A stretch of 64,000 bases of DNA from an uncultured virus (IMG/VR IMGVR_UViG_2558309035_000001) (Duplodnaviria > Heunggongvirae > Uroviricota > Caudoviricetes), in the IMG/VR virus record IMGVR_UViG_2558309035_000001; one strand, given 5' to 3'. The notes under the pieces were generated by a model, which saw nothing but the letters and a program-made list of their open reading frames with translations, searched no databases and was not told where the DNA came from. How positions within the stretch are numbered: the first letter of the stretch is position 1; each line of letters starts with the position of its first letter. The position numbers and the translations under genes were made by a program. Positions 7,739 through 34,490 of this stretch are shown piece by piece.

Positions 7739-8299
7739 CTAGATAAGATTAAGGCGTTGGCCTATTATTGTTGATTCTTGCTTGGTCTGTACACCAAGCT
7801 TTTGATATAGTTTCTTTTTAGCAAGGTGAAAAGAGCCTAAAGGCAGGTTCATTTCACTTGCGATAACATCATTGGTGTTATTGGTAGACAACATTTGTAC
7901 TAGCGTAATATCTTGATGATCTAACCGCGCACCGTTATACTGAACCGCTTTACACAATACCCCTTCTGATGCACATGTACCACGCAAAGGGCACGGCCAC
8001 CATTCACCATCTTGAACCCCATCGGTAGACATATCGGCTTTATAGTCCAACCCACCAAAACGGCATTTTACAAATTGCTCTAATCGTTTGTAGCTACTCG
8101 CTGGGTGCATATCGAACAGGTGAATTTTAACCTCATGATCTTTATCGATTTCATCTTGCAACATTTGCATATAAGAGAAAGGAAGTTGAGTTAAATCCAT
8201 CACGCTACCATTGGTAATCGCTTTAATATTATCGTTATCGATAAAAAATTCAACAGCATCGCTGGTGAGTCCGGGTAATAATTTGTTCTGGTTTGTCAT
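7739..8299 (-). CDS. Transcriptional regulator with C-terminal LuxR-type HTH and a Cys-rich segment
   Basis: CPLRGTC...C; TNDVIASEMNLPLGSFHLAKKKLYQKLGVQTK resembles a LuxR HTH. Confidence 0.75.
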   Translation of the reverse strand: MTNQNKLLPGLTSDAVEFFIDNDNIKAITNGSVMDLTQLPFSYMQMLQDEIDKDHEVKIHLFDMHPASSYKRLEQFVKCRFGGLDYKADMSTDGVQDGEWWPCPLRGTCASEGVLCKAVQYNGARLDHQDITLVQMLSTNNTNDVIASEMNLPLGSFHLAKKKLYQKLGVQTKQESTIIGQRLNLI

Positions 8300-8310: not shown

Positions 8311-8580
8311 TTAGTGGTTACTGATTAAATTGCTCACGGTTCTTTTTGCCGTTTTATTTTCAAGTGCGATCTCTGCCAAGACGTTTAACACTATCCAATC
8401 TTCGACAATACCGCTTTTGATATTGCGTATACTACCAGAAGAATAAGTAAGCTGCTTTTTAGCCAGACGGCTTTTCGCTTCTTTTACATACCCATATTTA
8501 AGGTGCTCTTTTAGAAAATCAAGAACCTCTTTATGCGAATGCACATTCTCTGCAGGTGTATTTTTAATTATATTTGTCAA
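8311..8580 (-). CDS. Cro-like early regulator
   Basis: Divergent from the CI-like gene; HTH-like segment YSSGSIRNIKSG; start codon uncertain. Confidence 0.55.
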   Translation of the reverse strand: MTNIIKNTPAENVHSHKEVLDFLKEHLKYGYVKEAKSRLAKKQLTYSSGSIRNIKSGIVEDWIVLNVLAEIALENKTAKRTVSNLISNH

Positions 8581-8673: not shown

Positions 8674-8997
8674 ATGGAATTTGGGGAAAAAATGCGAGAA
8701 CTAATTGATAAAAAGGGACTTACACAAAAGGAGTTTGCCCATGAGATCAATATGAACTATGCTCATACGAACAAGTTCTTTACAGGTCGTACACCGAATA
8801 TGGAGTTCATATTAAAAGTGGTAAAACGTTTTCCTGAAATAGATTTGAATTGGTTGCTATTGCCACACGAGCATCGCAAAATAAATGATCGTGTCGCAGA
8901 GCAACCTGCCGATTACAATGCGTCTAAAGCCATGCAGTACATTACCGGAGTAGAAGAAAAACTAGAAGAATTAAAGAAATATTTGACACAAATTTGA
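8674..8997 (+). CDS. XRE-family CI-like phage repressor
   Basis: GLTQKEFAHEINM...GRTPNMEFILKV...IDLNWLL; divergent from the early operon and next to att. Confidence 0.85.
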   Translation: MEFGEKMRELIDKKGLTQKEFAHEINMNYAHTNKFFTGRTPNMEFILKVVKRFPEIDLNWLLLPHEHRKINDRVAEQPADYNASKAMQYITGVEEKLEELKKYLTQI

Positions 8998-9134: not shown

Positions 9135-9707
9135 TTAAGTGGTTTTTACGGAATTTCTACCTGCTTTATTCCTCCTTACCCCCTCTATTAAAAGTTTTGC
9201 TCTTCCAATATATTGATCAACAGTAATTTTTTTTTCATTGTGCTCCTCCCAAATATCCCCATAACTCTCACTAAATTCATTCAACTTATCTTGAGATAAA
9301 TTATTAAGTTCCTCTGGGGTCATACCTAATAATATATAATCTACCTCAAATGGCATATAATAATCGGTTTCCGCTAAATTCTGGAATATTTGACTATAGC
9401 TATATACTTTATCTAGTTCTATGAGGTATTGTTTAAACTGTGCATCATGAAATCCAAGATTCTCTATAATACACTCAATAGCAGTATAAAAGATATCGGT
9501 TTTTATTCGTTGTGGTGATTCCAATTTTTCAATTGTTTTATTGATTGTGTCTGCTAAATCCACAAAGTTCAAAACCTCTAATGCAGATTTAAATTTTTCC
9601 TTTTGACCACCATACTTTAATCTATTAGTTTCCAATACCATATAATTATACGGGTTGTCGATGATTGTTTTAGCTACTTCAATTGATCTTGCTCCTGATA
9701 ATACCAT
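9135..9707 (-). CDS. Hypothetical protein (satellite cargo)
   Basis: 190-aa ORF, no motif recognised. Confidence 0.7.
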   Translation of the reverse strand: MVLSGARSIEVAKTIIDNPYNYMVLETNRLKYGGQKEKFKSALEVLNFVDLADTINKTIEKLESPQRIKTDIFYTAIECIIENLGFHDAQFKQYLIELDKVYSYSQIFQNLAETDYYMPFEVDYILLGMTPEELNNLSQDKLNEFSESYGDIWEEHNEKKITVDQYIGRAKLLIEGVRRNKAGRNSVKTT

Positions 9708-9727
9708 AATGTTTGATTTTTAAATTG

Positions 9728-10030
9728 TTATTTGATTCTTATTAAATTTTTCTTTTTAAATGTTTTGACTTGAATAAAGAAATTCTCGGCTTTCTCTTTG
9801 TATGACAATGAGCCATCGTTACCTACGGATTCAAATATGGATAAATATTCATCTTCTTTACCTTTTACGGTTCTTGGGTCAAATCCAAAAAGTATCTGTA
9901 TGTATGGATTTACATTTATATCAGAATCATTACTGGTCTTACAAATATTATTTATTTGTTCAGATACATAATACTGTCTAAATAATCCCGTCAACAATTC
10001 GATTTTTAAGTTTTTTTTGATTGCTTTCAT
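9728..10030 (-). CDS. Hypothetical protein (satellite cargo)
   Basis: 100-aa ORF co-oriented with 9135-9707. Confidence 0.6.
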   Translation of the reverse strand: MKAIKKNLKIELLTGLFRQYYVSEQINNICKTSNDSDINVNPYIQILFGFDPRTVKGKEDEYLSIFESVGNDGSLSYKEKAENFFIQVKTFKKKNLIRIK

Positions 10031-10219
10031 TTTAATTGATTTTTACTATTTGTTATTTGAATTTTTAATGTCCACTTAAATATTTTAAATATTATTTTGG
10101 GTTGTATTTCTGATTGTCTTTCCATCGCTTTATCCCAGATGTCTTCAAACTCTTCATTCGTGAAATATCCCCTGTTTAATATATCTTCCATACTTTAAAT
10201 GTTAATTATTTATTCAAAT

Positions 10220-10299
10220 ATACATTACAAGTATATTATATACAAATAAAAATATACTTTATTTGTATTTTTTAACATATTTATATACATTTGAAGTAT
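10220..10299. promoter_or_regulatory. Three ATAC-N7-GTAT palindromic operator-like sites
   Basis: At 10220-10234, 10254-10268 and 10285-10299, between the XRE gene and the divergent cargo genes. Confidence 0.55.
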
Positions 10300-10311
10300 T
10301 AAAGAGAAGAT

Positions 10312-10599
10312 ATGTTTAGGATTAAAGAGGTATTAAAAGAAAAGAATATGACGTCTATTGCACTTGCGGATGGTGTAGGTGTTGCCAGTAATACTATAGC
10401 ACGGATAAATAGCGGTGTAGCAAAACCAAGTATAGAACTATTAGAAAAGATTTCCGATACATTGGATGTTGATATTAGGGAACTGTTTAAGCCTGGTAAA
10501 GGTCATTCTTTACTTAATGGTTTTGTAGAGTATAAGAATACTATATACCGTATAGAAACAAAGGAGGATTTAGAAACCCTACTAAACAAGCTTAATTAA
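10312..10599 (+). CDS. XRE-family HTH transcriptional regulator
   Basis: RIKEVLKEKNMTSIALADGVGVASNTIARINSG...PSIELLEKISDTLDVDIRELF. Confidence 0.9.
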   Translation: MFRIKEVLKEKNMTSIALADGVGVASNTIARINSGVAKPSIELLEKISDTLDVDIRELFKPGKGHSLLNGFVEYKNTIYRIETKEDLETLLNKLN

Positions 10600-10738
10600 T
10601 ATGGAATCAGATAAGTTTCAAAAAAATATGATTTGGTTTATCTTCGGGATATGTGGATTGATGGTATTCATTACTAAATGTGAATGGGGTTAAAGTACAG
10701 GGCTGTACTATTATAGTTTGTATTACTCCTTTAATAAT

Positions 10739-11281
10739 TTATCTTCCCTTACCTTTTCCTTTTCCCTTACCTCTCCTTTGGTAACTAGATTTTACTGGGT
10801 TCTTTTTAGCTACTCTAATTTTATCTTCTTGTACGTAGTCAATTTGTTTAGTAGAAGGAATCCGAAATGTAAAACAAGATGTACCTTTAAAATTAGTGAA
10901 TGCAAAATCTCCTAAAGAAATAATATCCATACCAATTAACATCTCAGTATTACCAGATAGAATAGCTTCAACAACTTTAACACCTACAACATTTATTTTA
11001 TTAGGTAAATAAATATTTACAAGATAAGTATTAACTCTGTGTGAACCACCAGCGTGGTGAGAGGTAACTACTCCAGTTGGCTTTAACCCGAGCTCCTTTG
11101 CAACCTTAGCGGTAATGACTGTTCCTGTAGCACCAGTATCCCAGATTGCTTCATATTCTTTTAATACTAATGGATTAGCGGATCCGCCTCCTAAAGGAAC
11201 AGCATCTGAAACTCCACATTTTGTTTTCAGTACATTTATTCGGTGTGGTACTTTTAAAGTAAACGCTTTAATTTTAGTCAT
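10739..11281 (-). CDS. Retropepsin-like (clan AA) aspartyl protease with a basic C-terminal tail
   Basis: AIWDTGATGTVIT catalytic motif and LIGMDII. Confidence 0.85.
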   Translation of the reverse strand: MTKIKAFTLKVPHRINVLKTKCGVSDAVPLGGGSANPLVLKEYEAIWDTGATGTVITAKVAKELGLKPTGVVTSHHAGGSHRVNTYLVNIYLPNKINVVGVKVVEAILSGNTEMLIGMDIISLGDFAFTNFKGTSCFTFRIPSTKQIDYVQEDKIRVAKKNPVKSSYQRRGKGKGKGKGR

Positions 11282-11513
11282 TAATTACAACTCTAGAATG
11301 ATAAGTTTCAGTATAATCTTCATCTCCTGGGCTACATTTTTGAATTAAAAATGTACCAACCTCGTTACTTTTTCTAGATTCTGTAAGAGCTTCAATTTCT
11401 GAATTATAACTACCTAAAACTTCGTTACCTTTTATAACAATAAAACTACCTCCATAAGTTTCCAACAGAGCAGACTGATTGTCTAAGTAAAACTTAAATT
11501 CTTTTTCTAACAT
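11274..11513 (-). CDS. DUF5678-like small protein
   Basis: EFKFYLDNQSALLETYGGSFIVIKGNEVLGSY pattern; overlaps the protease start by 8 nt. Confidence 0.65.
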   Translation of the reverse strand: MLEKEFKFYLDNQSALLETYGGSFIVIKGNEVLGSYNSEIEALTESRKSNEVGTFLIQKCSPGDEDYTETYHSRVVIND

Positions 11514-11736
11514 AATTTATTTTTGCAATTATCAATTTACAAAAAGGGTTGCAAATCTACGAATTATTTACATATCAATGCTTTAACCAAATATAATACC
11601 AAATATTGTATTAATTAGATTAATTACCCATTTAGTAAGATAGATTTATTTTTATTTTATCAGCTCTCGAAAACGATAATAAAAAATTAAGGTTTTGTAA
11701 GCTATTTGTAAGCACGTAATGACACTAAAAAACTCC

Positions 11737-12270
11737 TTAACCCTGCTGCGTTACTTTCATTATACAATACCCATCATCATAAGAATATGTAATAAAGGGT
11801 TTGTATTTGGGTATATTACGATACACCTTCCACGCTTCATAGCTTGGATAATCACGTCTTCGACTACCTAAGTAGTTTCTATCGATCATCATAACAACAA
11901 GTGATCCGGGTAAGTTGTAATTTACTATTGGTAACGGAGCGGATAAATCAATAGTTCTGGTAACGTTATCTTGTAGATTATCGAATATTTCGTCGAAAAC
12001 CCTAACCATTTTCCAACCTCTTCCCCGTTCCGGTTCATTATCAAAATGTGTGTAATATTTCTTTGAAGGATTAATATGGCGATAACTCCAAGCAGCAACA
12101 ATTCTAAAACTTTGATAAATCCTATTGTCATTAAAGTGCATATCCTCCATTTCGGACATTCTAATATCTAATTTAATGCCCTTACTCGCATTCTTTAATT
12201 TGCCATTTGACAATACCTGTATTCCCGGCCCACCACCACCCTCGGTGTACAACTTCATTTCAACTTCCAT
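11737..12270 (-). CDS. Hypothetical protein (satellite cargo)
   Basis: 177-aa ORF, no family recognised. Confidence 0.55.
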   Translation of the reverse strand: MEVEMKLYTEGGGGPGIQVLSNGKLKNASKGIKLDIRMSEMEDMHFNDNRIYQSFRIVAAWSYRHINPSKKYYTHFDNEPERGRGWKMVRVFDEIFDNLQDNVTRTIDLSAPLPIVNYNLPGSLVVMMIDRNYLGSRRRDYPSYEAWKVYRNIPKYKPFITYSYDDGYCIMKVTQQG

Positions 12271-12306
12271 AATTTTATCTATTTATTAATTTTATACTTT
12301 TACCCA

Positions 12307-12516
12307 ATGGGTATATTTATCTTACTTTTAATTATAATTGGTTTTGGGGCATTTGGTTATTTTATACTCACTTCCATTTTTGATTTATTCATTGGTTCTA
12401 ATAAAGAACCCAAAACAAGCACCTACATAGATAACTCCGTTCACTATCATCAACATTTAACTATTGTTAAAAAAGATGAGACTATAACTGAAACTAGAAC
12501 AGAGATAAAGTATTAA
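12307..12516 (+). CDS. Small membrane protein
   Basis: N-terminal hydrophobic helix. Confidence 0.55.
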   Translation: MGIFILLLIIIGFGAFGYFILTSIFDLFIGSNKEPKTSTYIDNSVHYHQHLTIVKKDETITETRTEIKY

Positions 12517-12662
12517 TGATTATTGGAGATACAAGTCGCTAAATCACTTTTATTAATTTAATTATGTAAATTCTTTGAATTATAATTGAATTTACCGTTA
12601 CTGAAAACTATGTAAATAGAATAATCCCCACCGTATGGCAGGAATTATTCTTAGTATCCTAC

Positions 12663-12956
12663 TTAAAGCCCCATAGAATTAATTATCCTATCTAATTCTT
12701 CTGATGAAGGCTCTTTTTCAATGTCTGTCCTTGGTTGCTCTCCAACCATATTCAGGTATCTATTCTCGTGAATTTTAAATATATCCTCCAAATGATTGTG
12801 ATTATCAATTTTAACATCACTTAGGAACACCTCTTTTAAATGCTCTGGTATTTGACTATTGTTAAACATTTCATTGATTTTAGTCGTCATTGAGGAAATT
12901 TCAAACAGGCTAATATCAGTTCCTTTCAATTTTCTTGTAATACTTTCAATTTTCAT
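12663..12956 (-). CDS. Hypothetical protein (last gene of the satellite core operon)
   Basis: 97-aa ORF followed by a hairpin at ~12620-12650. Confidence 0.65.
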   Translation of the reverse strand: MKIESITRKLKGTDISLFEISSMTTKINEMFNNSQIPEHLKEVFLSDVKIDNHNHLEDIFKIHENRYLNMVGEQPRTDIEKEPSSEELDRIINSMGL

Positions 12957-12961
12957 AATTC

Positions 12962-13633
12962 TTATTTTTTAGTTAATTGCAAACTCCTTTGTAATTTATT
13001 TTCCACGTGATAAATACCCCTTGCGAATGGAACATACTTATATTCAGAATCAATATCCTTTCTTTCAGGTTTCACTATCAAGAATTTTTGTTCTACATTA
13101 GAATTACCATGCCAACTAACACCTTTTGGGGCACCTGGATGCAAATCACAATAATCAATAAAGTTCTTTTCATTCTCTTTTAAAATGTTGCAAATTTTCA
13201 GGGCAAAATCTAAAATTTCATTCTGCTTAACATTTTGTGTAAAGTATGTAAAATCGTTTTCTATGGACGCCTTACCTTGATTTGTCATAACTAAATCTGT
13301 TCCAGATAAAGACAATTCACTTCCATTAAATTGATTCACCATATTCTGCAAACTTCTTTCTAAAGAAGGGGGGTCTACTCCTAACAATCTATAATTTTCG
13401 GAATTCGACGCTTTAGGAAACGGAAACTTATTTTCTATAGTCTCTAGAAAATACTGGTAACCCCTACTTAAAAGTCTTTTTCTGACCTCATTAGAAGGTT
13501 TCTCGTCTAACATTCTTTCAGCTTTAACCAATACCGAAATAATAGATTTCTTCAAATCTTCATTTTTCCTGATTCTCGATTCAATACCATTGTAATCAAC
13601 CTCTATTATTCGAGGTGCAAATTTTTCACTCAT
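12962..13633 (-). CDS. Hypothetical protein (satellite)
   Basis: 223-aa ORF in the core operon. Confidence 0.7.
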   Translation of the reverse strand: MSEKFAPRIIEVDYNGIESRIRKNEDLKKSIISVLVKAERMLDEKPSNEVRKRLLSRGYQYFLETIENKFPFPKASNSENYRLLGVDPPSLERSLQNMVNQFNGSELSLSGTDLVMTNQGKASIENDFTYFTQNVKQNEILDFALKICNILKENEKNFIDYCDLHPGAPKGVSWHGNSNVEQKFLIVKPERKDIDSEYKYVPFARGIYHVENKLQRSLQLTKK

Positions 13634-13665
13634 ACTATTTATATTTAAAAATTAAACTCTATTTA

Positions 13666-13809
13666 CTATTCAAAAAAGTCCTCTATTTCCGCTGAAAACT
13701 TTCGCATTAAACTATTTCCTTGTTCAGTTCCCTGCTCTATTCCTAAACTATCGCAGTGCTTGACAAATTCATCGTATGTTTTAGGTACATACACTTCTCT
13801 ATTTTTCAT
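13666..13809 (-). CDS. 47-aa small protein not in the ORF track (MKNREVYVPKTYDEFVKHC...)
   Basis: ATG overlaps the upstream gene end and the ORF fills the intergenic gap. Confidence 0.5.
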   Translation of the reverse strand: MKNREVYVPKTYDEFVKHCDSLGIEQGTEQGNSLMRKFSAEIEDFFE

Positions 13810-14470
13810 TTTTAATGTTATTGGATATTAATTTTTCTATCTGTTCTATTGTTTCAAATGGCAATTGCTCAAACTCATCTTTAGATATCTTTAGATTGTT
13901 AATTTGTATGTAGTTATTTATGTTCGTAGATGGCTCTTTTTCGATACCTCCTGACAGCTCTATAAAGCTTTTTAATGCACTAGCGTTGTTATCTTTTACG
14001 CCTATTAAGTAAAGTTTAGATAATGCGTTAGCCGCCATGAATTTCAACTTACCTTTTAGGAGACTATTGAACTCGGATTTTAAACCATCTTTTAAATGCC
14101 TGTAGACTGTCATTCTGGAAAGCCCCAATTCTTTTATCACCAACGAACTAGGTGGAAAAGAGCCGTATTCCAAAATGTGGTTATGAATACATCTAGAAAT
14201 TAAATAATGATGCATTTCATACGTTGAATTCCTAAATCTCTCCAACTCTTCAACATCACCACCTATACTACAAACCTCAGCTATCATTTCACAAATGCGG
14301 TATTCTTTCCCGTCTTTGACCGTCATGCTGTGGTTATATTCTTTAATTAAATAACTCAAAAGATTCTTCCAGTCATTAGGTCTTTTTTCAAGATGTACAA
14401 TTACTTCCTTCTTTGTTGTAATCGTTTCAAATTCTGTAACACTTTGTAACGTTTTAGATTCTGCTTCCAT
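13799..14470 (-). CDS. HTH protein with a terminase-small-subunit-like C-terminus
   Basis: VIKELGLSRMTVYRHLK HTH followed by ALSKLYLIGVKDNNASALKSFIEL helices. Confidence 0.5.
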   Translation of the reverse strand: MEAESKTLQSVTEFETITTKKEVIVHLEKRPNDWKNLLSYLIKEYNHSMTVKDGKEYRICEMIAEVCSIGGDVEELERFRNSTYEMHHYLISRCIHNHILEYGSFPPSSLVIKELGLSRMTVYRHLKDGLKSEFNSLLKGKLKFMAANALSKLYLIGVKDNNASALKSFIELSGGIEKEPSTNINNYIQINNLKISKDEFEQLPFETIEQIEKLISNNIKNEK

Positions 14471-14510
14471 TTTAATTATCGTTCTATTCGTATTTTTAAA
14501 TCCTTTTAGA

Positions 14511-14807
14511 TTAAACTATATTAAGTTTCTTACTCAATTCCTTAATCCTTGCCTTTCGTTGATTAGGTGTCATCTTGTCTATATTTAAATTATCTGTAAT
14601 TTCTGTCCTGTTTAATTTAGGAAGGGAGTACTCTAACAATTTGATAATAGTATCTACCCTATCTTTTGATGACAATGATTTAATGTCTTCCTGTATTGAA
14701 TCCCAATTGTCATCTATTAACATATTTACATTAGCCCTTAAGGCTTCTGTCTTCTTATTAGGTGTTCCTTTAGGTCTACCTGCATTCTCTCTTTTTCCTC
14801 CTCGCAT
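14511..14807 (-). CDS. TerS-like small DNA-binding protein
   Basis: N-terminal RGGKRENAGRPKGTPNK motif, common in phage terminase small subunits. Confidence 0.55.
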   Translation of the reverse strand: MRGGKRENAGRPKGTPNKKTEALRANVNMLIDDNWDSIQEDIKSLSSKDRVDTIIKLLEYSLPKLNRTEITDNLNIDKMTPNQRKARIKELSKKLNIV

Positions 14808-14829
14808 AATGATTTATATTGATTGTTTT

Positions 14830-16068
14830 TCAATTATTTAAAATATCCTGATAAGTTTTTAGATCATCATAATAGGGTCTAATTACCTTTTCGTTTACAC
14901 CACTATTTAAAATATTCAGATAGCTTTTTATAGTCTTATCAGGTTCCGACCATACCACACCTTTAGATATCTCCACCGCAGCTAAGCCTTTTAAATCAAG
15001 CTTTGAGAAATATTCCGTTATACTGATAAGTTGCTTATCAAATTCAGACTTCTCAGCAACTACAGAAATTTGTTCAAATTCACTTTCATCAAATGTTGGG
15101 TCATACTTTATTATAGACGGTTGTTCCTGCTTTCTAAATTTTTCTAATGGAATATTGATTAAGAAGTCAGCTAAATCATAGCCGTTCAATCTCTGTTCTT
15201 CTGTAGCTTTTATTTCAAGAATCTTTGAAACTTCATATTTTGCACCAGGTTCTAAATCCGAAATTTTATTTAGCCAATTTTCATACTGCCCTAGGTCAGG
15301 GTATAAGGTTACATTACGCCCCTTCAACACCTTGGTCTTTTCATGATTTAGACCGTTTGCGTTACCCGCTGCCAACCAAACAAATTCATTGATATAGACA
15401 CTAGCGATTATTGCCGTTTTCTCGGATTCGACAATTGCAACCTTTTTGTCTGGGTATCGTTTCAATAAATGTTCGCCAAAGAAACATTGTACCAAATTGT
15501 AATTAGGATATTTACTTTTAGGAAAAGTGAAATAAACGTTTTGTTTTTTTCCCGTTAATGGGTCATAACCCATATTCTTTAATTGCCTGACATTGTTGTT
15601 TAAATCGACTTGAAAGAAGTCTACTCGGTTGTTATCCCTTTCACTTGTTCCTATTAAATACTCTTTCTTCAGTTGCTCCATCTGTTCCCTACCAAATAGC
15701 GATACCATGTATTTTAAAAAGTTATTTTCTCCTGTTCTTTTGAAACTTTCTGACAGTATTTCCCTATCTAAATTAGTGGTGGGTAATTGCTTATTATATC
15801 GGTTTAAGAGGGGTGTTATAGGTTTAACGTTTTGAACCGATAAATTCGGAGTTTGCCCAAACCTATCAAACCTTTGTAAGTATTCTTTTGGCGTCAAATG
15901 ATAACCGCATTTTTCTAACCTGTTGCATATACCTACATTATCGTTAACGTATTCACTAACCTCAATGTTTACGTACCTTGTGAATTGATTAGCCTTATTA
16001 CAACTAGGGCAATGATATCTGCTTTTGCTGCTTTTATACGGTTCCAAAATGTATTTATAATCTTTCAT
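14830..16068 (-). CDS. DUF6371/TOPRIM primase-like replication protein with an N-terminal zinc finger
   Basis: CPSC...CNRLEKCGYH; QCFFGEHLL, AIVESEKTA, VTLYPD, DLADF. Confidence 0.85.
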   Translation of the reverse strand: MKDYKYILEPYKSSKSRYHCPSCNKANQFTRYVNIEVSEYVNDNVGICNRLEKCGYHLTPKEYLQRFDRFGQTPNLSVQNVKPITPLLNRYNKQLPTTNLDREILSESFKRTGENNFLKYMVSLFGREQMEQLKKEYLIGTSERDNNRVDFFQVDLNNNVRQLKNMGYDPLTGKKQNVYFTFPKSKYPNYNLVQCFFGEHLLKRYPDKKVAIVESEKTAIIASVYINEFVWLAAGNANGLNHEKTKVLKGRNVTLYPDLGQYENWLNKISDLEPGAKYEVSKILEIKATEEQRLNGYDLADFLINIPLEKFRKQEQPSIIKYDPTFDESEFEQISVVAEKSEFDKQLISITEYFSKLDLKGLAAVEISKGVVWSEPDKTIKSYLNILNSGVNEKVIRPYYDDLKTYQDILNN

Positions 16069-16077
16069 AATTCTATC

Positions 16078-16165
16078 GGTTCAATAGGTTCAAACCTTAT
16101 TTTAAACTTATAAACGCCCTTAGGTTCATCGGTTTAACCGCCTATATAGTAGGCGGTATTAAACC
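16078..16165. repeat. Putative satellite origin: GGTTCA repeats plus hairpin ACCGCCTA-N5-TAGGCGGT
   Basis: Intergenic between the helicase and primase genes. Confidence 0.45.
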
Positions 16166-17304
16166 TATAGGATATCACTAGTATATTTACCTAATGTATA
16201 TGGCTTCCTTTCTGCATCTTGAACTACCCAACCTTCGTTTTTACATTGATCTACTAACTTCTTTGATTTAGCATCTGATAACTCCTTTTCTATTTGCCTT
16301 TTATGCTCTGTCTGTAAAGCAATCCAAAGCTCTTTATAGGTGTAGCTTAATTTCTTTGAGAAAATGGATGTAAGGAGCTGAAACTTCTTAAAATCATCTA
16401 GCTCTATACTATTACCACCTCTTTTATTTGATGCTGTTCTAACTTCCCAGTTTTCTGCTAGTATTGGAAGCCCTTCTTCGTTAATCTCAAAAGCAAATGG
16501 TTCAGGTTCTCTATCCCTACAGTATTCAGCTTCTACAATCGATATATCTTTGTTCTGGGGGCTTTTAGTTACTGATAAAGTAGTTTCTGCCTTATTGACT
16601 AATTCAGCCCCTAAATGCCCTCTAGCGTTATTATCGTTTTTATTTTGATGTAGCACAACCACGATATGAATATTTAACTCTTCAGTCCATTTGAGTAAAA
16701 GACTGGTCATATTACTGGCTTGGTCTTCATCATTAATAGAGGTTACCAGATCTCTTATCCCATCTATAACAACTAAACCTAAATTTGGTGAGTTGTAAAT
16801 TTTTTGTTCAATCATTTTAACCCTGTCTATGGCTTTAAACTTTCTTAACCCATAAGCTTTAAAGTTGTTTGGGTTTGAAGTGTTTGAAAGTTTACATATT
16901 CTATTTACAGTTTTTTGTAGGTGATACTTACCCTGTTCCGTATCGAATAATATTGCTTCGTTCTTACCTTTTTTAGCTGTTCCTTTTATTGTTTCCAATA
17001 TTTCAGAATTAGTAATGAATGAAGCTAATTTTGAACCAATTAGAAAAGTTTTTCTACTTTTTGCCTTACCAATCAATAAACTAAAGTTTCCAAGTGTAGC
17101 AATAACAGAAGGTGTTCCATTAGATATTATCTGAAGACAGTTTTCAGGTGGTGGTAATTGTTCTAATGGATTTATTAAAACAGTTTCAAGATCAACCATT
17201 AATGAATTTGAAACATCACCTTCTATAGTTATTACCTCGTCTAATATATCTGCTAAAACTAAATCTGAGGATTGTTTTAATTCTGTATTTATTGTATCTT
17301 GCAT
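16165..17304 (-). CDS. AAA_25/RepA-like helicase (P-loop ATPase)
   Basis: Walker A GKAKSRKT, FDTEQ, VVIDGIRDL, LHQNK...RGHLG. Confidence 0.85.
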   Translation of the reverse strand: MQDTINTELKQSSDLVLADILDEVITIEGDVSNSLMVDLETVLINPLEQLPPPENCLQIISNGTPSVIATLGNFSLLIGKAKSRKTFLIGSKLASFITNSEILETIKGTAKKGKNEAILFDTEQGKYHLQKTVNRICKLSNTSNPNNFKAYGLRKFKAIDRVKMIEQKIYNSPNLGLVVIDGIRDLVTSINDEDQASNMTSLLLKWTEELNIHIVVVLHQNKNDNNARGHLGAELVNKAETTLSVTKSPQNKDISIVEAEYCRDREPEPFAFEINEEGLPILAENWEVRTASNKRGGNSIELDDFKKFQLLTSIFSKKLSYTYKELWIALQTEHKRQIEKELSDAKSKKLVDQCKNEGWVVQDAERKPYTLGKYTSDIL

Positions 17305-17363
17305 CTTCTAGAAATAAAGATTTTTAGCCCCAATATGTCCGTCCAAGACATGGGGCTTTTTTA

Positions 17364-17705
17364 TTATGCTGTTCTTATAGATTTTCGGGAAAGTAAATTG
17401 TCAGTTTCCTGTTGTATATGCTTTTCGGAATTACTGTTGCCTGACTTTATCCATTCAAGGAGTTCTGATTTAAAAAAATATAACCTACCATTCTTTTTAT
17501 GACATGGTATCAATCCTTTACGAGCTTTTTTATATAAGCTATCCTTACTTTCCTTTAAATAAGAACATGCTTCATCAATCTCTATAGGTTGTTCTATTTC
17601 ATCTTTAGATAGATTGGTAAAAGAAAATTTTTCTAAAAAAAGATCTAATTTTTTATTTAATTCTAACACCATTCTAGGTGTTTGCTCAAGTGTGGGTGTT
17701 TCCAT
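17364..17705 (-). CDS. Excisionase-like HTH_17 DNA-binding protein
   Basis: IDEACSYLKESKDSLYKKARKGLIPCHKKNGRLYFFKSELLEWI. Confidence 0.85.
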   Translation of the reverse strand: METPTLEQTPRMVLELNKKLDLFLEKFSFTNLSKDEIEQPIEIDEACSYLKESKDSLYKKARKGLIPCHKKNGRLYFFKSELLEWIKSGNSNSEKHIQQETDNLLSRKSIRTA

Positions 17706-17781
17706 TTATCTTGTTTTAATTCTACAAGACAAATTTGGGAAATAGTGGAGGTGGTAACTGGTTTACACTAGTTTAGAAAAT

Positions 17782-18690
17782 TTAATTATCCAAAATAAAA
17801 GTCTCAATAATACTTAAAGCTGAATCTACTTCCTTAGTACTAAATTCTTTATAAACTAGCAGTTCCTTAGTATTTCTGTAAATTTTCCTTAAAGCAAAAA
17901 TTTGCTTTCTATTTTTAGAATTACATAATGTGGATACATTATTATAATAGTCTTCATATTCCTTATAGTATTCTAAAAATTTTTGTGTAGAATTATTTTT
18001 TGAAACTTTTAATTTTTTTTGTGCATTACCTCTAGTTACCTTTTCGTTTATAAACAAATAGTATAGAGCAAGTGACCTTCCCTCTGCATCATAAATAGGA
18101 TCTAACTCATTTACGACATCAGTTAACTCTTCATCATAAGCACTACTTAACCCTACAGTAGATTCATCAAGTTCAATTTTTAAAAATTCCTTTATAAAAT
18201 CATTAGCATATCCTTTCAAATCTAGGTAGTTACTTTCCCATTTATAAGAATTATCATGTTTAAGTTTTAAGTATTTATTTGCTATTATTTGACCTTTAAT
18301 AAAATAGATATCATCATCATTAATAAATTGATGAAGTAAAACGCTAGTTAGCCTATCCGATTTAATTTTCCGAACTCTATCAGTCAGGTGTCCAGAAAAA
18401 ACCTTAGCATACCTTTCCATACTACCTAATTCTTTATAATCGTTTTCAAAAACAGATTCTTTAAACGTTTTTACCATTACACTTAATGTTGCTAAAGAAT
18501 TCATAATATCTAATAAAACTATATGAGAAGGTTTAGAGAATTTTTTACACTCCGTTATGTATTCCTGATATAAATAATTTCTTAGCTCCTTATCGTTTTG
18601 AAACAATTCGATGTAAGGAATTTCATCAACTCCAATCCTATTCTTTCTATTTTCGTACAATTGACTGAGAAAAGTTCGTTGTAATTCCAT
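17782..18690 (-). CDS. Hypothetical protein downstream of the satellite integrase
   Basis: 302-aa ORF starting 2 nt after the integrase stop. Confidence 0.7.
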   Translation of the reverse strand: MELQRTFLSQLYENRKNRIGVDEIPYIELFQNDKELRNYLYQEYITECKKFSKPSHIVLLDIMNSLATLSVMVKTFKESVFENDYKELGSMERYAKVFSGHLTDRVRKIKSDRLTSVLLHQFINDDDIYFIKGQIIANKYLKLKHDNSYKWESNYLDLKGYANDFIKEFLKIELDESTVGLSSAYDEELTDVVNELDPIYDAEGRSLALYYLFINEKVTRGNAQKKLKVSKNNSTQKFLEYYKEYEDYYNNVSTLCNSKNRKQIFALRKIYRNTKELLVYKEFSTKEVDSALSIIETFILDN

Positions 18691-18692
18691 TT

Positions 18693-19949
18693 TTAAAAAT
18701 CCATTAATTTATCTGCAAATTCTTTCTTTGTTTTATCCTCAAAACCATCAAAATAGTTTTGTGTTACCGAAATATCAGAATGATTTAAAGCTTCGCTAAC
18801 GAACTCTATAGATGCCCCCATATTAATCATATTGGTGGCATAGCTATGTCTAGCCCAATAGCTCGAAAACTCTTTAGGGAACTCATATTCCTTAGCAATA
18901 TTTTTTAGTTGTTGGTTAATAGCTCTAGTAAAGTTTTTGACCTTTGTATAAATGACTTCGGCAGAATCACCATCATCAAGAATTGGAAAAACATAAGATT
19001 GTTCACCTCTATACTCAGTTTTGTATTTCTCAAGTATTCTCTTTGTAACCTTATTTAATTGAAAGGATATTTTCTTTTTATTCGTTCTCTTCTTTATCTT
19101 AGTTTTCTCCCTATAGTATGAAATTTCATCATCTTTTAGGTTCTCATATTTCAACATAGCAATATCTTTAAAATTCATACCGCTGCATCCATAACTAAAG
19201 AACCAGTAGTCTCTAGCCCTATCCTGTAGTTGTGGCAACTTAGAATGATACAATAGTGTTACTTGTTCCCTACTTAAAGTTTTCTTTACCTTTTTTTCTT
19301 CAGGAATTTCATATTTCTTTCTACCAAAAGGATAATACTTTTTATCCAAATCATTATCGGTTATAGCATTGTTAAAAATGACCCTAAGAGTACGAGTATA
19401 GATTGCCACGGTGGTTAAACTTCTACCTTTATCATCTATCATAAAACTTTCATAGTCCTCAAGCCATTTAGGAGTAATCTCTAAAAATGATAGGGTATTT
19501 TTACTAACCTTAGTTCTTTGGGCTTCATATTTTAAAAGAGATTTTAATGCAGCGTTATAGCTCTCAGCTGCTCCTATTCTTTCTTTACTTCTAAACTCGT
19601 CTACGGTTTTGTTGAAGTGATAAATAACACTTGTTTTATCTGAACTTTTTCTAAGTAGTTTTTGTTCAAAGTTTTCAAAATCAAAATATTCTAAAGATTC
19701 GGCTGCTTCCTCTGCTCTTTTCAATAAATATGATAATTGCTCATAATCTTTTTTAGCAACTCCTTTCAACTTATGAGAACCAATATTAGAGTTCCATGCA
19801 GATTCAAATCTAATTTCACTCATATTAAGCCCTGTGGTGATTCTCTTTGCTTTTTTAAGTTCATTAGACCATATTCTAACCTTTACTGGATAAGTACCGT
19901 CCTTTAGCTTTCTACGCTTATCCTGTACTATGGTTATTTTGCTATTCAT
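18693..19949 (-). CDS. int: Tyrosine integrase of the satellite (Arm-DNA-binding, SAM-like and catalytic domains)
   Basis: N-terminal DGTYPVKVRI arm domain; GMNFKDI, YWARHSYAT, LNHSDISVTQNY. Confidence 0.93.
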   Translation of the reverse strand: MNSKITIVQDKRRKLKDGTYPVKVRIWSNELKKAKRITTGLNMSEIRFESAWNSNIGSHKLKGVAKKDYEQLSYLLKRAEEAAESLEYFDFENFEQKLLRKSSDKTSVIYHFNKTVDEFRSKERIGAAESYNAALKSLLKYEAQRTKVSKNTLSFLEITPKWLEDYESFMIDDKGRSLTTVAIYTRTLRVIFNNAITDNDLDKKYYPFGRKKYEIPEEKKVKKTLSREQVTLLYHSKLPQLQDRARDYWFFSYGCSGMNFKDIAMLKYENLKDDEISYYREKTKIKKRTNKKKISFQLNKVTKRILEKYKTEYRGEQSYVFPILDDGDSAEVIYTKVKNFTRAINQQLKNIAKEYEFPKEFSSYWARHSYATNMINMGASIEFVSEALNHSDISVTQNYFDGFEDKTKKEFADKLMDF

Positions 19950-29799: not shown

Positions 29800-29970
29800 C
29801 TATTCTACTTCTATAAAGTTCATGGTCAACTTATGTTCTATGTAGCGGTCATCATCAACGAGGACCAATAGGTTTTGTTCTTTTTGTTCCCAAAGGCTAT
29901 CGCTATCGATAACTTCACCGTCATCTGTATAAATGGTATCGGTGTTTCTAAAGAATGTTTTGTTTGACAT
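29800..29970 (-). CDS. 56-aa acidic small protein not in the ORF track (MSNKTFFRNTDTIYTDDGEVIDS...)
   Basis: ATG to TAG ORF directly after the structured leader and before a hairpin. Confidence 0.55.
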   Translation of the reverse strand: MSNKTFFRNTDTIYTDDGEVIDSDSLWEQKEQNLLVLVDDDRYIEHKLTMNFIEVE

Positions 29971-30104
29971 AGTATAATTCGACGGCGGAAGGCGCTGTCA
30001 GGTTACACATGCATAATGCGAAGATATAGACCCCCGACCCTTACGGGTTACGGACGCCTTCCGGTAAATATTCAGTTTAAAAAACTGCATGTGTAATTCG
30101 ACAA
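29971..30104 (-). ncRNA. C4-like structured RNA leader
   Basis: TTACACATGCA/TGCATGTGTAA and CGGAAGGCG/CGCCTTCCG complementary pairs; GTCGAATTA occurs twice; -7-like TATCTTCG at 30107-30114. Confidence 0.5.
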
Positions 30105-30153
30105 GGCGAAGATAGGAAAGTAATTCCTATAAGAAAATATGTAGATTAATTTA

Positions 30154-30669
30154 TTAAGGTTCTATAAAATCTTCATAGTCCTCAAAATATTCGGAAAGGT
30201 TTTCTTGAGATATAACAGTGACTCCAAATTCAACCGCTAAATCCATTTTTTTAGGACCTGGTGAATTCCCTATAATCAATATTTTAGTATTCTTACTTAC
30301 ACCACTATCCACGTCGGCACCAACTTCCCATAATTTTTTAACCAAAATATTGCGGTCATAAAAATCATCAAACACACCTGTTACCACCACTTTCTTACCA
30401 TAAAAAAAATGAGTCTTATCATCTAAATCTTTTCTAGGCTGCAGATAATTGCTTTTTATCTTTCTGCTTTTAAACTCAGCAATATCCTCGTAAGCTTCTA
30501 TTTTAGCACTTTCGGCATATTCTTCATTTTTAAAAATAGGTTTAGAAGAAACAGACTTAAGATTATTTTCAGTTTCAATTATATCTAAAGATTTGGGCTT
30601 TTTATATAAAAGGGTTGCCACAAAAAAACCTAATAATCCACCTACGAAAAATGCTATGATAGTATCCAT
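30154..30669 (-). CDS. Membrane-anchored BRCT-domain protein (moron)
   Basis: N-terminal TM helix; FYGKKVVVTG...GADVDSGVSKNTKILIIG.SPGPKK BRCT signature. Confidence 0.8.
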   Translation of the reverse strand: MDTIIAFFVGGLLGFFVATLLYKKPKSLDIIETENNLKSVSSKPIFKNEEYAESAKIEAYEDIAEFKSRKIKSNYLQPRKDLDDKTHFFYGKKVVVTGVFDDFYDRNILVKKLWEVGADVDSGVSKNTKILIIGNSPGPKKMDLAVEFGVTVISQENLSEYFEDYEDFIEP

Positions 30670-30673
30670 TTTT

Positions 30674-31072
30674 TTATTTTAATGAAATCTCTCCATTCTT
30701 AAAAGCTGCATTTATATTTATACAGAAATACTTGGTAAAAAGGTAATGTACTCCGTCCTGTTCCTTAAAAAACTTCACTTTCTGCTTCTTAAATGCAGCT
30801 CTACTATCTGCATTTTGAATAGGCTCATTAAAATTATTTACAAACTGAACGTACCTAAAAGAACCGTCTTGGTTTACCCCTTCATTAATTTGTATCTCGT
30901 CACCTATATCGATAACATGACCATCAAGAGTCTCTATAGGTTCTTTTATTTTCTTCTTCCAACTAACACTAGCCCCTTGAGCAGATGACAAATTAATCAT
31001 CAGCCCCATAAAAAATAATAATGCATAAAAAACATATCCTTTTGGATTGTTCGAATTCTGATCGTATTTCAT
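30674..31072 (-). CDS. Secreted hypothetical protein (moron)
   Basis: Signal-peptide-like N-terminus ending SSA-Q. Confidence 0.65.
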   Translation of the reverse strand: MKYDQNSNNPKGYVFYALLFFMGLMINLSSAQGASVSWKKKIKEPIETLDGHVIDIGDEIQINEGVNQDGSFRYVQFVNNFNEPIQNADSRAAFKKQKVKFFKEQDGVHYLFTKYFCININAAFKNGEISLK

Positions 31073-31075
31073 ATT

Positions 31076-31447
31076 CTAATTTTGTAAATGGTTTAATTGT
31101 CTTACCAATAACTTTTCGTTATAACCGTCTGTTATAGAAAGTAATTTCTTGAACTGCTTTACCAATAGAATAATCTCGGTTCTATTCTGGTGGTCATCAG
31201 CATCTGAAGACTCCAAGAACGTAAATAGAAGCGTATCTAAAGTTTGTAATTGGTTAGACGCCCTATCATTGCTCAACAATTCGTTCAGCCAAACTTTGAC
31301 CTCTCTCATATAGTTTGAACTATGCTTGTATTCTGCCTCTACATTTTCAATGAGCCTCTTATAATCTTCATTTTGAAGTTTACCTTCTACATGAAGCTCT
31401 TCTGCAACTTGTAGTACTAATGCTAACTGTTTTAAATTACTTGCCAT
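31076..31447 (-). CDS. Helical hypothetical protein coupled to the upstream membrane gene
   Basis: 123 aa; overlaps the upstream gene by 11 nt. Confidence 0.65.
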   Translation of the reverse strand: MASNLKQLALVLQVAEELHVEGKLQNEDYKRLIENVEAEYKHSSNYMREVKVWLNELLSNDRASNQLQTLDTLLFTFLESSDADDHQNRTEIILLVKQFKKLLSITDGYNEKLLVRQLNHLQN

Positions 31448-31925
31448 TCTCCAACACTATCTTTTTTGCCTGCTCAATTTTTTGGGCAACATGGCGTCTT
31501 AACAACCACCACATACCCAATAAAGCCAACATGGTTAATACTGTAGTACCAACGACATATACCTGCAAATAACTGTCATCTACTATCTTGAAATCAAAAA
31601 ATATAAAATATAACTGCAACACATAACAGTACACCGGTACCGCATGTATTAACAAATGTGTTTTAAACAAACGGGTACTCAACGCCCAGATTGCAGGGCT
31701 AATGGTCTGTGAACAGAACCAAACAAAGGTGGGAAAGTCCATACCTGCAGCTGCCCACTTTTCGGGCACGATAAACTGCATCCCTAGAAAAGAGAAAACC
31801 TTATCAGAATACAAAATGAATCCTGATAAGGCTACCAATAAATTTCCTAACAAAGAACTGCGAGAGGTATTAGTTACCCCCGCTAGAACCTGGTCTTTTA
31901 ATTTTTGAACCGTCAACGCTTTCAA
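31437..31925 (-). CDS. Multi-pass (~4 TM) membrane protein
   Basis: Four hydrophobic segments; TTG start lies inside the upstream lipopeptide ORF. Confidence 0.7.
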   Translation of the reverse strand: MKALTVQKLKDQVLAGVTNTSRSSLLGNLLVALSGFILYSDKVFSFLGMQFIVPEKWAAAGMDFPTFVWFCSQTISPAIWALSTRLFKTHLLIHAVPVYCYVLQLYFIFFDFKIVDDSYLQVYVVGTTVLTMLALLGMWWLLRRHVAQKIEQAKKIVLENGK

Positions 31926-32016
31926 TTTGATTTAATGTATCTTCTTCTTCAATACTATCATTGGTACAAGCACTAACAGCAACAATGAACAACAACGCAA
32001 ATACTACTTTTTTCAT
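31870..32016 (-). CDS. 48-aa lipoprotein/peptide precursor not in the ORF track (MKKVVFALLFIVAVSA-CTNDSIEEEDTLNQIESVDGSKIKRPGSSGGN)
   Basis: SPII signal with lipobox VSAC and acidic residues after the Cys; TACCTTTG promoter at 32109-32116. Confidence 0.7.
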   Translation of the reverse strand: MKKVVFALLFIVAVSACTNDSIEEEDTLNQIESVDGSKIKRPGSSGGN

Positions 32017-32216
32017 TTTAAACTTATTTTAGGGTTATTCCCTAAAGTTCAGAAATGAAATTGCGTAAATAAACGGGGGAGAATTTATTTATTAAAAAGT
32101 TGTTCAAGCAAAGGTAAAAATCTTACAACACCAAACAACTAGGAAAACCTCTGGTTTTAAGAGGACATTCTATTATTACGGTTTGAGGTAAAAATAATCG
32201 ATGAAATGCAACATTA

Positions 32217-32502: not shown

Positions 32503-32880
32503 TTATTCTAAACCTCCCATAATTTCCCTGGTACTTTCCGTAAAGCCAAATGACAACCTACGAACAATGTTATTGGCATAACCATAGAGTAGGCGGTTAT
32601 GTATAGCGTAGTTCTTTTTCTTTACCACACCAGTCGTGGTACGCCTACGTTTCATATCTATAAAACGGTGTTTCATTAAATGATCAAAAGAAAGCACGGT
32701 ATCGGTAGCATCTATTTTACGATCGGCAAAAAGCTCACGACTTTGAAAGCCACTACGGTTCATTTTCTTGGTCTGCGTTGCCATCATATCATTACCTTCT
32801 TCACGCAATACAGTACGTATGAACCGGCGTTCTAAAATCAAATTCTCTTGCGATGCCTTACGGCGTTCTAGTCTTGTCAT
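32503..32880 (-). CDS. Putative tail completion/neck protein
   Basis: Basic 125-aa protein (RFIDMK) positioned between head-tail and tape-measure genes. Confidence 0.5.
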   Translation of the reverse strand: MTRLERRKASQENLILERRFIRTVLREEGNDMMATQTKKMNRSGFQSRELFADRKIDATDTVLSFDHLMKHRFIDMKRRRTTTGVVKKKNYAIHNRLLYGYANNIVRRLSFGFTESTREIMGGLE

Positions 32881-33097
32881 TTATAACCGGGTGTATATCT
32901 GTTGTTGTAATTACGACATTCTGAAATTTTAAGTAACCAAGCTTACCAAGTACTTCTAGCATTACACCTAAAGATGTCTTTTTCCTTTTTGGATGGCGCC
33001 AATTATACAATTGATCTTTGCTTGCACCTAAAGGTTTAATTAAATCGTTATCGGTAACAACCTTCATAAAAAGCTGTTTAATCTGCTCGTCTTTCAT
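32858..33097 (-). CDS. Small HTH-like protein
   Basis: LGASKDQLYNWR...SLGVMLEVLGKLG. Confidence 0.45.
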   Translation of the reverse strand: MKDEQIKQLFMKVVTDNDLIKPLGASKDQLYNWRHPKRKKTSLGVMLEVLGKLGYLKFQNVVITTTDIHPVINDKTRTP

Positions 33098-33123
33098 AGT
33101 CGTCTAAGGTACGACTATTTTTT

Positions 33124-33585
33124 TTATAATTCAGTTCGTAAATTAAACGATACCATATAGCCATTGCAACCTGCTTTTGCCCAGACAGGGGTAATTTTTT
33201 CACTACCTTCTTTTAAATATGCAAATGTAGGACAGGTATTCGAATTCATTTTTTCGGTGTACACATACGTAAGAAACTTACGTGCAGCCATTAAAGTTTC
33301 TTGCATAACGGCATTAAAGTCGCTTTGATTCAAATCTGCATACTCCACTTTTTTAAGGATAAGAAAATCTAACCCATTATCATACATTGGTGCGTCGTCA
33401 TCTCTATAATCACCACCATAATCTGGCAACACACCGTATAACAATAAATTATCGGCTACATGTACATCATTTATTCTATTGGCTAATTGAGAATCATCGA
33501 TAATCATTTCTATATGATTAATTTCATCAATCGCATCTTTGCAGGCAGCCAAAAACAACATTAACTCATTCGGTGTAATTATCAT
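33124..33585 (-). CDS. Putative tail terminator-like protein
   Basis: Acidic 153-aa protein ending CNGYMVSFNL; positional call. Confidence 0.5.
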   Translation of the reverse strand: MIITPNELMLFLAACKDAIDEINHIEMIIDDSQLANRINDVHVADNLLLYGVLPDYGGDYRDDDAPMYDNGLDFLILKKVEYADLNQSDFNAVMQETLMAARKFLTYVYTEKMNSNTCPTFAYLKEGSEKITPVWAKAGCNGYMVSFNLRTEL

Positions 33586-34490
33586 GATTTCGTTTTTAAA
33601 GCGTCTTGCTGGACTTTGAAGTCCTTATCTCGCTTGGTTAGATCGTACATGCGCATTAAAATTTCCCAAAGGTTTTCTTTCTCCAGCTCCTTTTTTGAGC
33701 CAAACACTCCGCTTTCTGCCAGCGTAAACAAAATACTCTTCATCCCTATACCAGGCACATCAGATTGCTTGCTTTCGGGGTCCGCCTCAAACAATATACT
33801 AAGATCAAGCTCTCTACCTTGCCAGTATATCTTTGCCGATGCTATATATTTTTGAAAGGATGCAAACAATAGGTAAAAACCATATACCTGTCCGAAATAC
33901 AGCTTTTTAAAATGTTTGGCGCGATCTTCTACACCGTGTTGATTATACGCTTTACGAGCATCACCATTAATTTCTTCATTAGAAACGCCTATTTTGAATA
34001 TCGATTTTGGTCTACGATATAACGTAGCCATTAATTGATACAGGCATTCATTATCATTTGTGGCATTGAATTCAGAGAATAGGTGAAGTGCATCTATGTA
34101 TTCGCCAAACTGAATATTTTCGAATCCGTCTGCAGGTCCGTAATAATTACTGCCCAAGAGCTTTATCTTGGCGATAGGATTATGTACATAGTATTGTTTT
34201 AGAATACGAATATCACCTTCTCCATCTTCAAAAAAATCATCTACAAGCTCTGATAGCTTATAGATGTTTGCCATTTTATCTTCTTGAGCACCGGTATCAT
34301 CATCTTCAACAGGCTTCATATTTAAAAGAGCATACACGGCATGTACCCGAAATACCTCATAAGACATTTGCTGTGTCTGCAATTGGTATATCAGCATAGA
34401 CAGCTCATAATACTGCCTGGTATCGCACTCCGATAAATCTTCGGGCATATAAAGCTTGGTGCCGGTATGTGGAATTTCTATAGAAATCAT
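33582..34490 (-). CDS. Phage morphogenesis protein (tail assembly chaperone-like)
   Basis: 302 aa in the structural operon; FGEYIDA, LMATLYR, LAESGVFG. Confidence 0.5.
   Translation of the reverse strand: MISIEIPHTGTKLYMPEDLSECDTRQYYELSMLIYQLQTQQMSYEVFRVHAVYALLNMKPVEDDDTGAQEDKMANIYKLSELVDDFFEDGEGDIRILKQYYVHNPIAKIKLLGSNYYGPADGFENIQFGEYIDALHLFSEFNATNDNECLYQLMATLYRRPKSIFKIGVSNEEINGDARKAYNQHGVEDRAKHFKKLYFGQVYGFYLLFASFQKYIASAKIYWQGRELDLSILFEADPESKQSDVPGIGMKSILFTLAESGVFGSKKELEKENLWEILMRMYDLTKRDKDFKVQQDALKTKS

Follow-up and report, generated by a model that had tools for sequence, protein, structure and literature searches.

A kinase-free peptide cassette, with predicted ligand tail and membrane protein encoded in overlapping frames, as a candidate signalling system of Flavobacteriaceae and their temperate phages

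In agr, an exported peptide is read by a two-component membrane sensor. ComQXPA of Bacillus subtilis is likewise a system of peptide quorum sensing (PMC10075063), and RRNPP/arbitrium systems are recognized by a propeptide of 10–100 aa that carries a Sec signal and adjoins the gene of a 250–500-aa cytosolic TPR receptor. The same source describes peptide quorum sensing and peptide-guided phage decisions for Gram-positive Bacillota (PMC10075063). For the marine flavophages, Duneviridae and Helgolandviridae are known to carry LuxR-type genes, from which their authors proposed density sensing, and density sensing by temperate phages of Flavobacteriaceae has been proposed only from such annotations (PMC8776804). 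In open-access papers we found no description of a system like the one reported here, and the cassette belongs to no known family among those searched.

The DNA analysed, hereafter the window, is a stretch of 64,000 nt from an uncultured virus (IMG/VR IMGVR_UViG_2558309035_000001). The phage record is 67,115 nt long; it contains an 8.3-kb end repeat, which leaves about 58.8 kb of unique sequence. Profile searches with Pfam and PHROGs find integrases, a primase, a head protease and a tape-measure protein, and the adaptor gene has matches in records of Flavobacterium phage 6H-like and Cellulophaga phage Ingeline, of which Ingeline_1 is classified in Duneviridae; the source virus is a Duneviridae-like temperate phage of marine flavobacteria. 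Between its integrase and a repressor-like gene, a region of lower GC (window 9135-19949) holds a second integrase and genes for AAA_25 and DUF6371 proteins, and resembles an integrative element of its own that has inserted into the phage; within that region, at 10739-11513, a small ORF is followed by a gene for a retropepsin-like aspartyl protease. The features that the argument needs are the following.

32109..32138, minus strand: predicted Bacteroidota housekeeping promoter (TTG, 19 nt, TACCTTTG)
32089..32106, minus strand: conserved element of 18 nt that immediately follows the promoter box, common to the window and loci L002, L036 and L019
31870..32016, minus strand: 48-aa exported propeptide, predicted from its LPAM_1 match, dN/dS and conserved tail residues
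31870..31925, minus strand: 56-nt dual-coding overlap, peptide tail and membrane-protein N-terminus in different frames
31437..31925, minus strand: 162-aa four-helix membrane protein starting at TTG 31925, predicted from its model, charge distribution and phmmer relatives
31076..31447, minus strand: 123-aa all-helical soluble protein, whose start overlaps the membrane gene stop by 11 nt
30154..31072, minus strand: variable cargo, a 132-aa protein with a hydrophobic N-terminus and a 171-aa BRCT protein
8674..8997, plus strand: XRE repressor-like gene of the phage, outside the cassette (HTH_3, E 2.7e-6)

Each of the described signalling systems shares something with this cassette and departs from it elsewhere. 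As in RRNPP/arbitrium (AimP–AimR), a small and predictedly Sec-exported propeptide, here of 48 aa, adjoins its partner gene, the active part is predicted to be C-terminal, the tail may be repeated, and both chromosomes and temperate phages are carriers. The partner, however, is a 162-aa membrane protein rather than a 250–500-aa cytosolic TPR receptor, the other neighbour has 123 aa, no TPR is found (Pfam, E 0.01), the genes overlap by 56 nt, the host is a diderm, and there is no link in sequence or fold. With ComQXPA and agr the cassette would share an exported peptide (here predicted) read by a membrane sensor, the two varying together as linked specificity groups, but it lacks a histidine kinase, a response regulator and a maturation enzyme among the window ORFs scanned around it, and its predicted output passes by way of a small helical protein to an XRE repressor. 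The LuxR-type flavophage genes come from the same phage group and also gave rise to a proposal of density sensing; that proposal, however, stems from LuxR annotation, and the gene of the window with a weak GerE match (7739-8299, E 0.014) is separate from the cassette.

The peptide gene is preceded, as the preliminary description held, by a predicted promoter: TACCTTTG occupies 32116-32109 and is preceded at a distance of 19 nt by TTG, an arrangement that we take to be the Bacteroidota housekeeping consensus. Alone, the 8-mer is common (80 sites in 67 kb); it recurs at −100 to −102 from the start of the peptide gene in L002, L036 and L019, is also present in L113, and lies upstream in 63 of 82 family loci as against 15 of 82 in-gene control windows. 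A sigma-70 scan, which is poorly suited to this phylum, stays at chance level, and Rfam gives no match. The 18-nt element behind the box has a single exact site in the window and two exact matches in viral contigs, those of the L002 and L036 records, and is possibly an operator or a start-site element.

The 48-aa product had been read as a lipopeptide with a lipobox, an acidic linker and a basic, glycine-bearing tail, and this layout holds: a signal peptide (residues 1–16) is followed by the lipobox Cys17 (Pfam LPAM_1, 21.1 bits with a cut-off of 20), an acidic linker and a basic/Gly tail at residues 35–48, the predicted ligand. Compared with a TARA relative (L113), the peptide has a dN/dS of 0.115 (6 synonymous and 3 non-synonymous changes), and D35, R41, P42 and G43 are conserved in at least 90% of 20 relatives. 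The mature peptide comprises 32 hydrophilic residues without a folded domain, and its other profile matches are weak and fall in the signal-peptide region (phrog_8372, E 0.0096; NF050142, 19 bits with a cut-off of 50). Over 83 peptide–receptor pairs (22 phage-type and 61 chromosomal), the set behind the later counts, the mean charge is +1.9 in the tail and −2.7 in the linker. Six peptides (L012, L017, L030, L092, L047, L048) carry two to four tandem copies of the tail, and such repeats are a feature of pheromone precursors. The polar and then acidic residues after Cys17 resemble LES surface-export signals, the exact consensus of which, K-(D/E)2, Q-A-(D/E)2 or S-D-D-type just after Cys+1 in Bacteroidota surface lipoproteins (PMC5080379), is absent.

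Export of the peptide is well supported, and the lipobox is retained in 19 of the 22 phage-type peptides. It is absent from 30 of the 83 (27/61 chromosomal, 3/22 phage-type), 29 of which retain the tail motif, and the lipid anchor is therefore dispensable. A peptide of such size should not cross the outer membrane unaided, so that the signal may stay within one cell. In a different account, the cassette would be a tethered envelope sensor acting in one cell, without any cell-to-cell signal: the anchored lipopeptide would engage the membrane protein only upon a change in lipoprotein sorting or in envelope integrity, as RcsF engages IgaA under such changes. The lipobox of most phage-type peptides fits this account, as do the lack of a processing protease or exporter in the cassette, the fixed stoichiometry that the gene overlap would enforce, and the location of chromosomal copies near porX, an envelope-secretion regulator. 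The thirty peptides without a lipobox do not fit it, and the tail repeats, together with the diversity of tails in tandem cassettes, suit specificity variants better than a single stress cue; on balance we regard a tethered sensor as unlikely.

The membrane gene had been proposed to begin at a TTG 56 nt inside the peptide ORF. The ORF is found there, and the sequences of the family favour the overlapped start at TTG 31925. The peptide stop lies within 50 nt of helix 1 in 61 of the 83 pairs, all 61 sharing the same relative frame, and the tail is encoded inside the membrane gene in 61/83 pairs. Over the last 17 codons the receptor frame of the close pairs contains 0 stops, with 34.4 expected under synonymous resampling; the shared frame and the missing stops indicate that the overlap is selected. 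Among the 22 separated pairs, 10 have stops (12.9 expected), and on sequence grounds the overlap is lost in part of the chromosomal set. Relative to L113, dS is about 0.08 in the overlap as against 0.36–0.49 outside it (Fisher p 0.056). Could the small ORF nevertheless be incidental, with the membrane gene starting after the peptide stop? Public gene calls for close relatives of the membrane protein include both 162-aa and 138-aa forms, and the shorter form fits an in-frame TTG just after the peptide stop. No start codon follows the peptide stop, however, in 18 of the 22 phage-type loci, the window being among the four with a late TTG or GTG, and in view also of the peptide's dN/dS and of the stop-free overlapped frame an incidental ORF is barely credible.

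The overlapping gene encodes, in line with the four or so transmembrane helices first noted, a protein modelled as four long helices (AlphaFold2, 58-row alignment, pLDDT 89.9) with moderate hydropathy peaks; its dN/dS against L113 is 0.10. Under the positive-inside rule, by which topology is read from charge, both ends and loop 2 are assigned to the cytoplasmic side and loops 1 and 3, which are acidic, to the outer side, and model and charges together predict an inner-membrane receptor with cytoplasmic ends and acidic outer loops. The protein has no family in Pfam (E 0.01), PHROGs, NCBIfam, PADLOC or PDB sequences; tblastn against GenBank phages returned nothing, and scans of viral contigs with close alignments gave no relatives. 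Fold searches with the model yielded no clear match, which does not establish a new fold: with SMR/EamA transporters the best comparison (VIA, Z 6.7, rmsd 5.0 over 92 residues) is tied with unrelated helical proteins, Foldseek gives E 0.85 and Pfam no match, and the atlas matches are unnamed clusters with scores under 0.9, to be taken as leads only.

Relatives of the membrane protein are widespread in one bacterial family. A phmmer search returned 67 clusters at 50% identity, the named members being 'hypothetical protein' entries in Maribacter, Winogradskyella and Tenacibaculum, and a profile of 58 rows had matches in 149 of the 401 Flavobacteriaceae genomes searched. These matches split into 17 strong ones (phage-type) and many weak ones (chromosomal-type), the latter a homologous subfamily (hhalign probability 98.2, E 3.6e-14). 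In a phylum-wide sample, 7 of 301 genomes matched, all of them already in the Flavobacteriaceae draw, and the family was not found outside Flavobacteriaceae among those 301. Pairing was read on 90 non-redundant single-domain loci (23 phage-type), contig-edge loci being left out and chromosomal loci taken mainly from the top of the profile ranking rather than from all matches. A small exported peptide stands directly upstream of the membrane gene in 22/22 phage-type and 61/67 chromosomal-type loci, as against 2/177 control ORFs; the pick at L083 failed the rule and was dropped, though a true lipopeptide is present there, and three 'misses' also have peptides. When the search starts from the peptide tail alone, the membrane gene is overlapped in 3/3 loci, two of which are one phage. 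Homologues of the membrane protein thus carry an exported peptide upstream, which was one of the checks proposed in the preliminary description; the small ORF is conserved beside them.

Most copies reside on host chromosomes. The module is therefore not a phage invention, contrary to its first reading as specifically a phage module; rather, a phage has likely taken up the cassette from a family common on Flavobacteriaceae chromosomes. Where context was read, chromosomal-type copies lie between tsaE and an alanine-dehydrogenase-like gene (scoring below the NCBIfam cut-off), near porX, and the locus often has an XRE gene facing one to three double-domain proteins of 390–435 aa. In L041-L049 the order is porX, XRE facing one to three such peptide-less proteins, tsaE, peptide, membrane protein and alanine-dehydrogenase-like gene (for example L044 3799-7250). 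The 390–435-aa homologues were considered as histidine kinases and rejected as such: they mostly consist of two copies of the membrane domain, and L044, which was scanned, gives no kinase match. They are possibly orphan receptors, and the locus may be connected with the control of type IX secretion. Some phage-type copies neighbour prophage-like loci that bear transposases, and others a conjugative-transposon region or a grasp-with-spasm cluster. Several peptide genes or complete cassettes form arrays in L049 (5369-6299), L059 (7147-7758), L024, L041 and L099, each cassette of the L024 array having its own promoter box. Such collections recall toxin–immunity pairs, in which the tail would be antibacterial, the membrane protein would confer immunity, and the tandem cassettes (L024, L041, L099) and peptide-less double-domain proteins, up to three orphans per locus, would be collected immunities; the tight gene linkage and the copy beside a grasp-with-spasm peptide cluster are in keeping with this. 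Yet the tail is short, polar, rich in Gly and Pro and not amphipathic, the signal is of the Sec/lipoprotein kind and not a bacteriocin leader, and each cassette has its own promoter and a linkage to XRE genes, so that a toxin–immunity pair seems very unlikely.

If the tail is read by the membrane protein, the two should differ together between lineages, and co-varying C-termini had been proposed as a check. The five receptors of the window clade (support 100/88) go with tails ending K-R-P-G-S, and the nine of a second phage-type clade (support 98/90) with tails of the form E/Q-R-P/A-G-x-Q. Tail class agrees with the nearest receptor in 22/22 phage-type pairs, a value reached by 0 of 10,000 permutations, with the class label chosen after inspection of the tree and the rows related rather than independent. 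A partial Mantel correlation of tail with receptor, given the signal peptide, is 0.33 (p 0.005) for the phage-type pairs and 0.06 (p 0.135) for the 61 chromosomal pairs, where tails are highly variable and their anchoring crude. The co-variation is thus seen in the phage-type set and not detected in the chromosomal one. In the tandem cassettes of L024 and L099, signal peptide and linker are shared, the tails differ, and the receptors are 44–70% identical. Linkage alone could produce part of the tail–receptor co-variation.

The third gene, described beforehand as a 123-aa helical protein overlapping the membrane gene, is confirmed in its 11-nt overlap and is all-helical in a low-confidence model (pTM 0.38), with which fold searches gave no clear match. 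Relative to L113, dS is saturated in this gene, the changes numbering 64.5 synonymous and 35.5 non-synonymous. Of the 23 phage-type loci, 17 have a third gene and 6 lack it; its members form one loose family with a helix-Gly-helix hairpin, and the window protein matches a leave-one-out profile of that family (E 5.4e-8). The N-terminal hairpin is SHOCT-like, and sub-threshold SHOCT matches occur in the third genes of L011 and L013; the window protein itself has no Pfam SHOCT match, and the SHOCT domain has no settled function (PMC3581485). Copies in the tail slot carry an added C-terminal module. A stand-alone ORF homologous to the C-terminal half occupies the same accessory slot in L036 (6288-6599), near a divergent KilA-N gene (E 7.6e-10). 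The idea that the third gene is a split-off C-terminus of the long membrane homologues was rejected, the likeness not being significant (best E 0.016). We predict the third protein to be the relay. The cargo behind it (30154..31072) is likely on the same transcript and lies outside the conserved trio; it is swapped for DUF4468 proteins in L002 and L036 and for another protein in L114. In tail-slot phages the gene right after the trio is exported-looking and of varying family, DUF4468 in two:

30674-31072 of the window, minus strand; L002 6542-7096; L036 4772-5287; L114 1608-2117: post-trio gene

The cassette, on the minus strand, is flanked by a conserved 125-aa gene on one side and by the tape-measure gene on the other. 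Ingeline_1 has an empty slot, with a 126-aa gene at the matching position directly abutting its tape-measure gene, and the slot is therefore accessory. The trio is also found in the matching tail slot of L001, L002, L036, L038, L113 and L114, of which L002 was recovered through the flanking gene, and L112-L114 through the peptide tail alone, that is, independently of the membrane protein; L112 and L113 are one phage, L112 stopping inside the membrane gene. Next to the tape-measure gene, and just ahead of it, an acidic ORF of 56 aa (window 29800-29970) is retained in L113 and L114, and L036 has a similar-looking ORF at that position. Immediately upstream of the cassette, the contigs from X2 and X3, two sequencing runs, skip 293 nt and with them a 91-aa ORF, for which L113 has a different ORF. 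In run X2 the cassette region (window 29903-32210) shows 30 differences in 2308 nt and the virion genes upstream of it (32504-33600) 75 differences in 1097 nt; X3 has the same pattern, which suggests a recent exchange of the cassette block. Contigs of run X12 depart from the reference at 29921 and 32504, none spanning, which hints at most that the slot can hold different cargo.

This setting recalls the exclusion morons of the Ltp type, which share with our cassette a prophage lipoprotein, a promoter of its own (here predicted) and an accessory slot (PMC3952083), and superinfection exclusion was the alternative offered by the preliminary description. A complex of lipopeptide and membrane protein would then block adsorption or DNA entry of related phages, and the third protein would serve as scaffold or as abortive effector. 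There are known examples of lipoproteins acting as exclusion factors (PMC3952083), the slot is empty in Ingeline_1 and holds changing cargo elsewhere, and no repressor adjoins the window cassette. The cassette differs from Ltp-type exclusion in its unfolded mature part of 32 residues, its obligate membrane partner, its mostly chromosomal carriage and its many peptide relatives without a lipid anchor. Homology to a known exclusion family was not found: PHROGs and NCBIfam matches are weak and confined to the signal-peptide region, and PADLOC has none. With a fixed chromosomal locus in many genomes and an XRE gene converging on the cassette at 10 of the 18 other loci also against it, exclusion or defence is decidedly unlikely, and less likely than a pair of signal and receptor.

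The XRE linkage is what points from a signal and receptor towards an output. Counted with a leave-one-out profile for which the XREs were chosen from these very loci, a convergent XRE gene accompanies 10/18 phage-type loci outside the tail slot, with a weak one in 3 more, and 0/5 tail-slot loci tested, of which L001 has only 508 nt downstream. L013, the nearest relative of the window clade, has the convergent XRE (PF07022), which suggests that the tail-slot arrangement is derived. As no repressor adjoins the cassette in the five tail-slot loci, an arbitrium-like role becomes weaker for the window copy. The XRE gene of the phage (8674..8997), 22 kb from the cassette and divergent from a small ORF at 8311-8580, is on its sequence a candidate target in trans; its homologues in G690 and G691 are also far from the cassette. 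No operator-like word shared between the cassette promoter and the phage repressor region was found, since 17 and 14 of 30 shuffles reach the match.

How might the parts work together? Sec would export the propeptide, lipidated in the window copy; the basic tail of about 12 residues would be released or presented in the periplasm; and the membrane protein would bind the tail through its acidic outer loops and through polar residues conserved in its helices. We regard these three steps as rather probable. The cytoplasmic C-terminal helix of the receptor would then alter the state of the 123-aa protein, which would act on an XRE repressor, a relay that we hold as tentative and somewhat doubtful. 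In the window phage an XRE is not a neighbour of the cassette, so that any output would need to reach its target in trans, be it the phage repressor at 8674-8997 or a host XRE, for instance the one next to porX. Tail release, binding, the relay and its target we infer; in the three cassette genes Pfam and NCBIfam find neither a kinase nor a DNA-binding or enzyme domain, and the output is therefore read from neighbours in other genomes. In the proposed sequence of signal, receptor and effector, signal and receptor are the best reading, given the peptide pairing and the phage-type tail co-variation, and the effector output is borrowed from neighbours elsewhere. Taken as a whole, the proposal that the cassette is a kinase-free peptide ligand–receptor pair with a cytoplasmic relay is evenly balanced. 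Through the overlap, ligand tail and receptor would be passed on together as a single unit, and a conserved out-of-frame overlap of the two is an unusual way of locking partners together.

Beyond the single cell, the cassette may belong to an undescribed kinase-free system of cell-to-cell peptide signalling in marine Flavobacteriaceae, composed of an exported peptide, a four-helix receptor, a helical anti-repressor and an XRE repressor, with specificity groups locked by the overlap; the phage variant would count lysogens or tap the host circuit for the lysis–lysogeny choice. This wider picture is a minority prospect, and control of the lysis–lysogeny choice in the window phage itself is fairly unlikely. 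If true, it would be an analogue of arbitrium in a Gram-negative host, built from unrelated parts, in a family that together with its phages dominates algal-bloom turnover. The family offers a candidate ligand of about 12 residues, easily synthesised, and a candidate receptor of no known family or clear fold, and as the chromosomal locus lies beside the type IX secretion regulator porX, the question can be put to the test in culturable strains.
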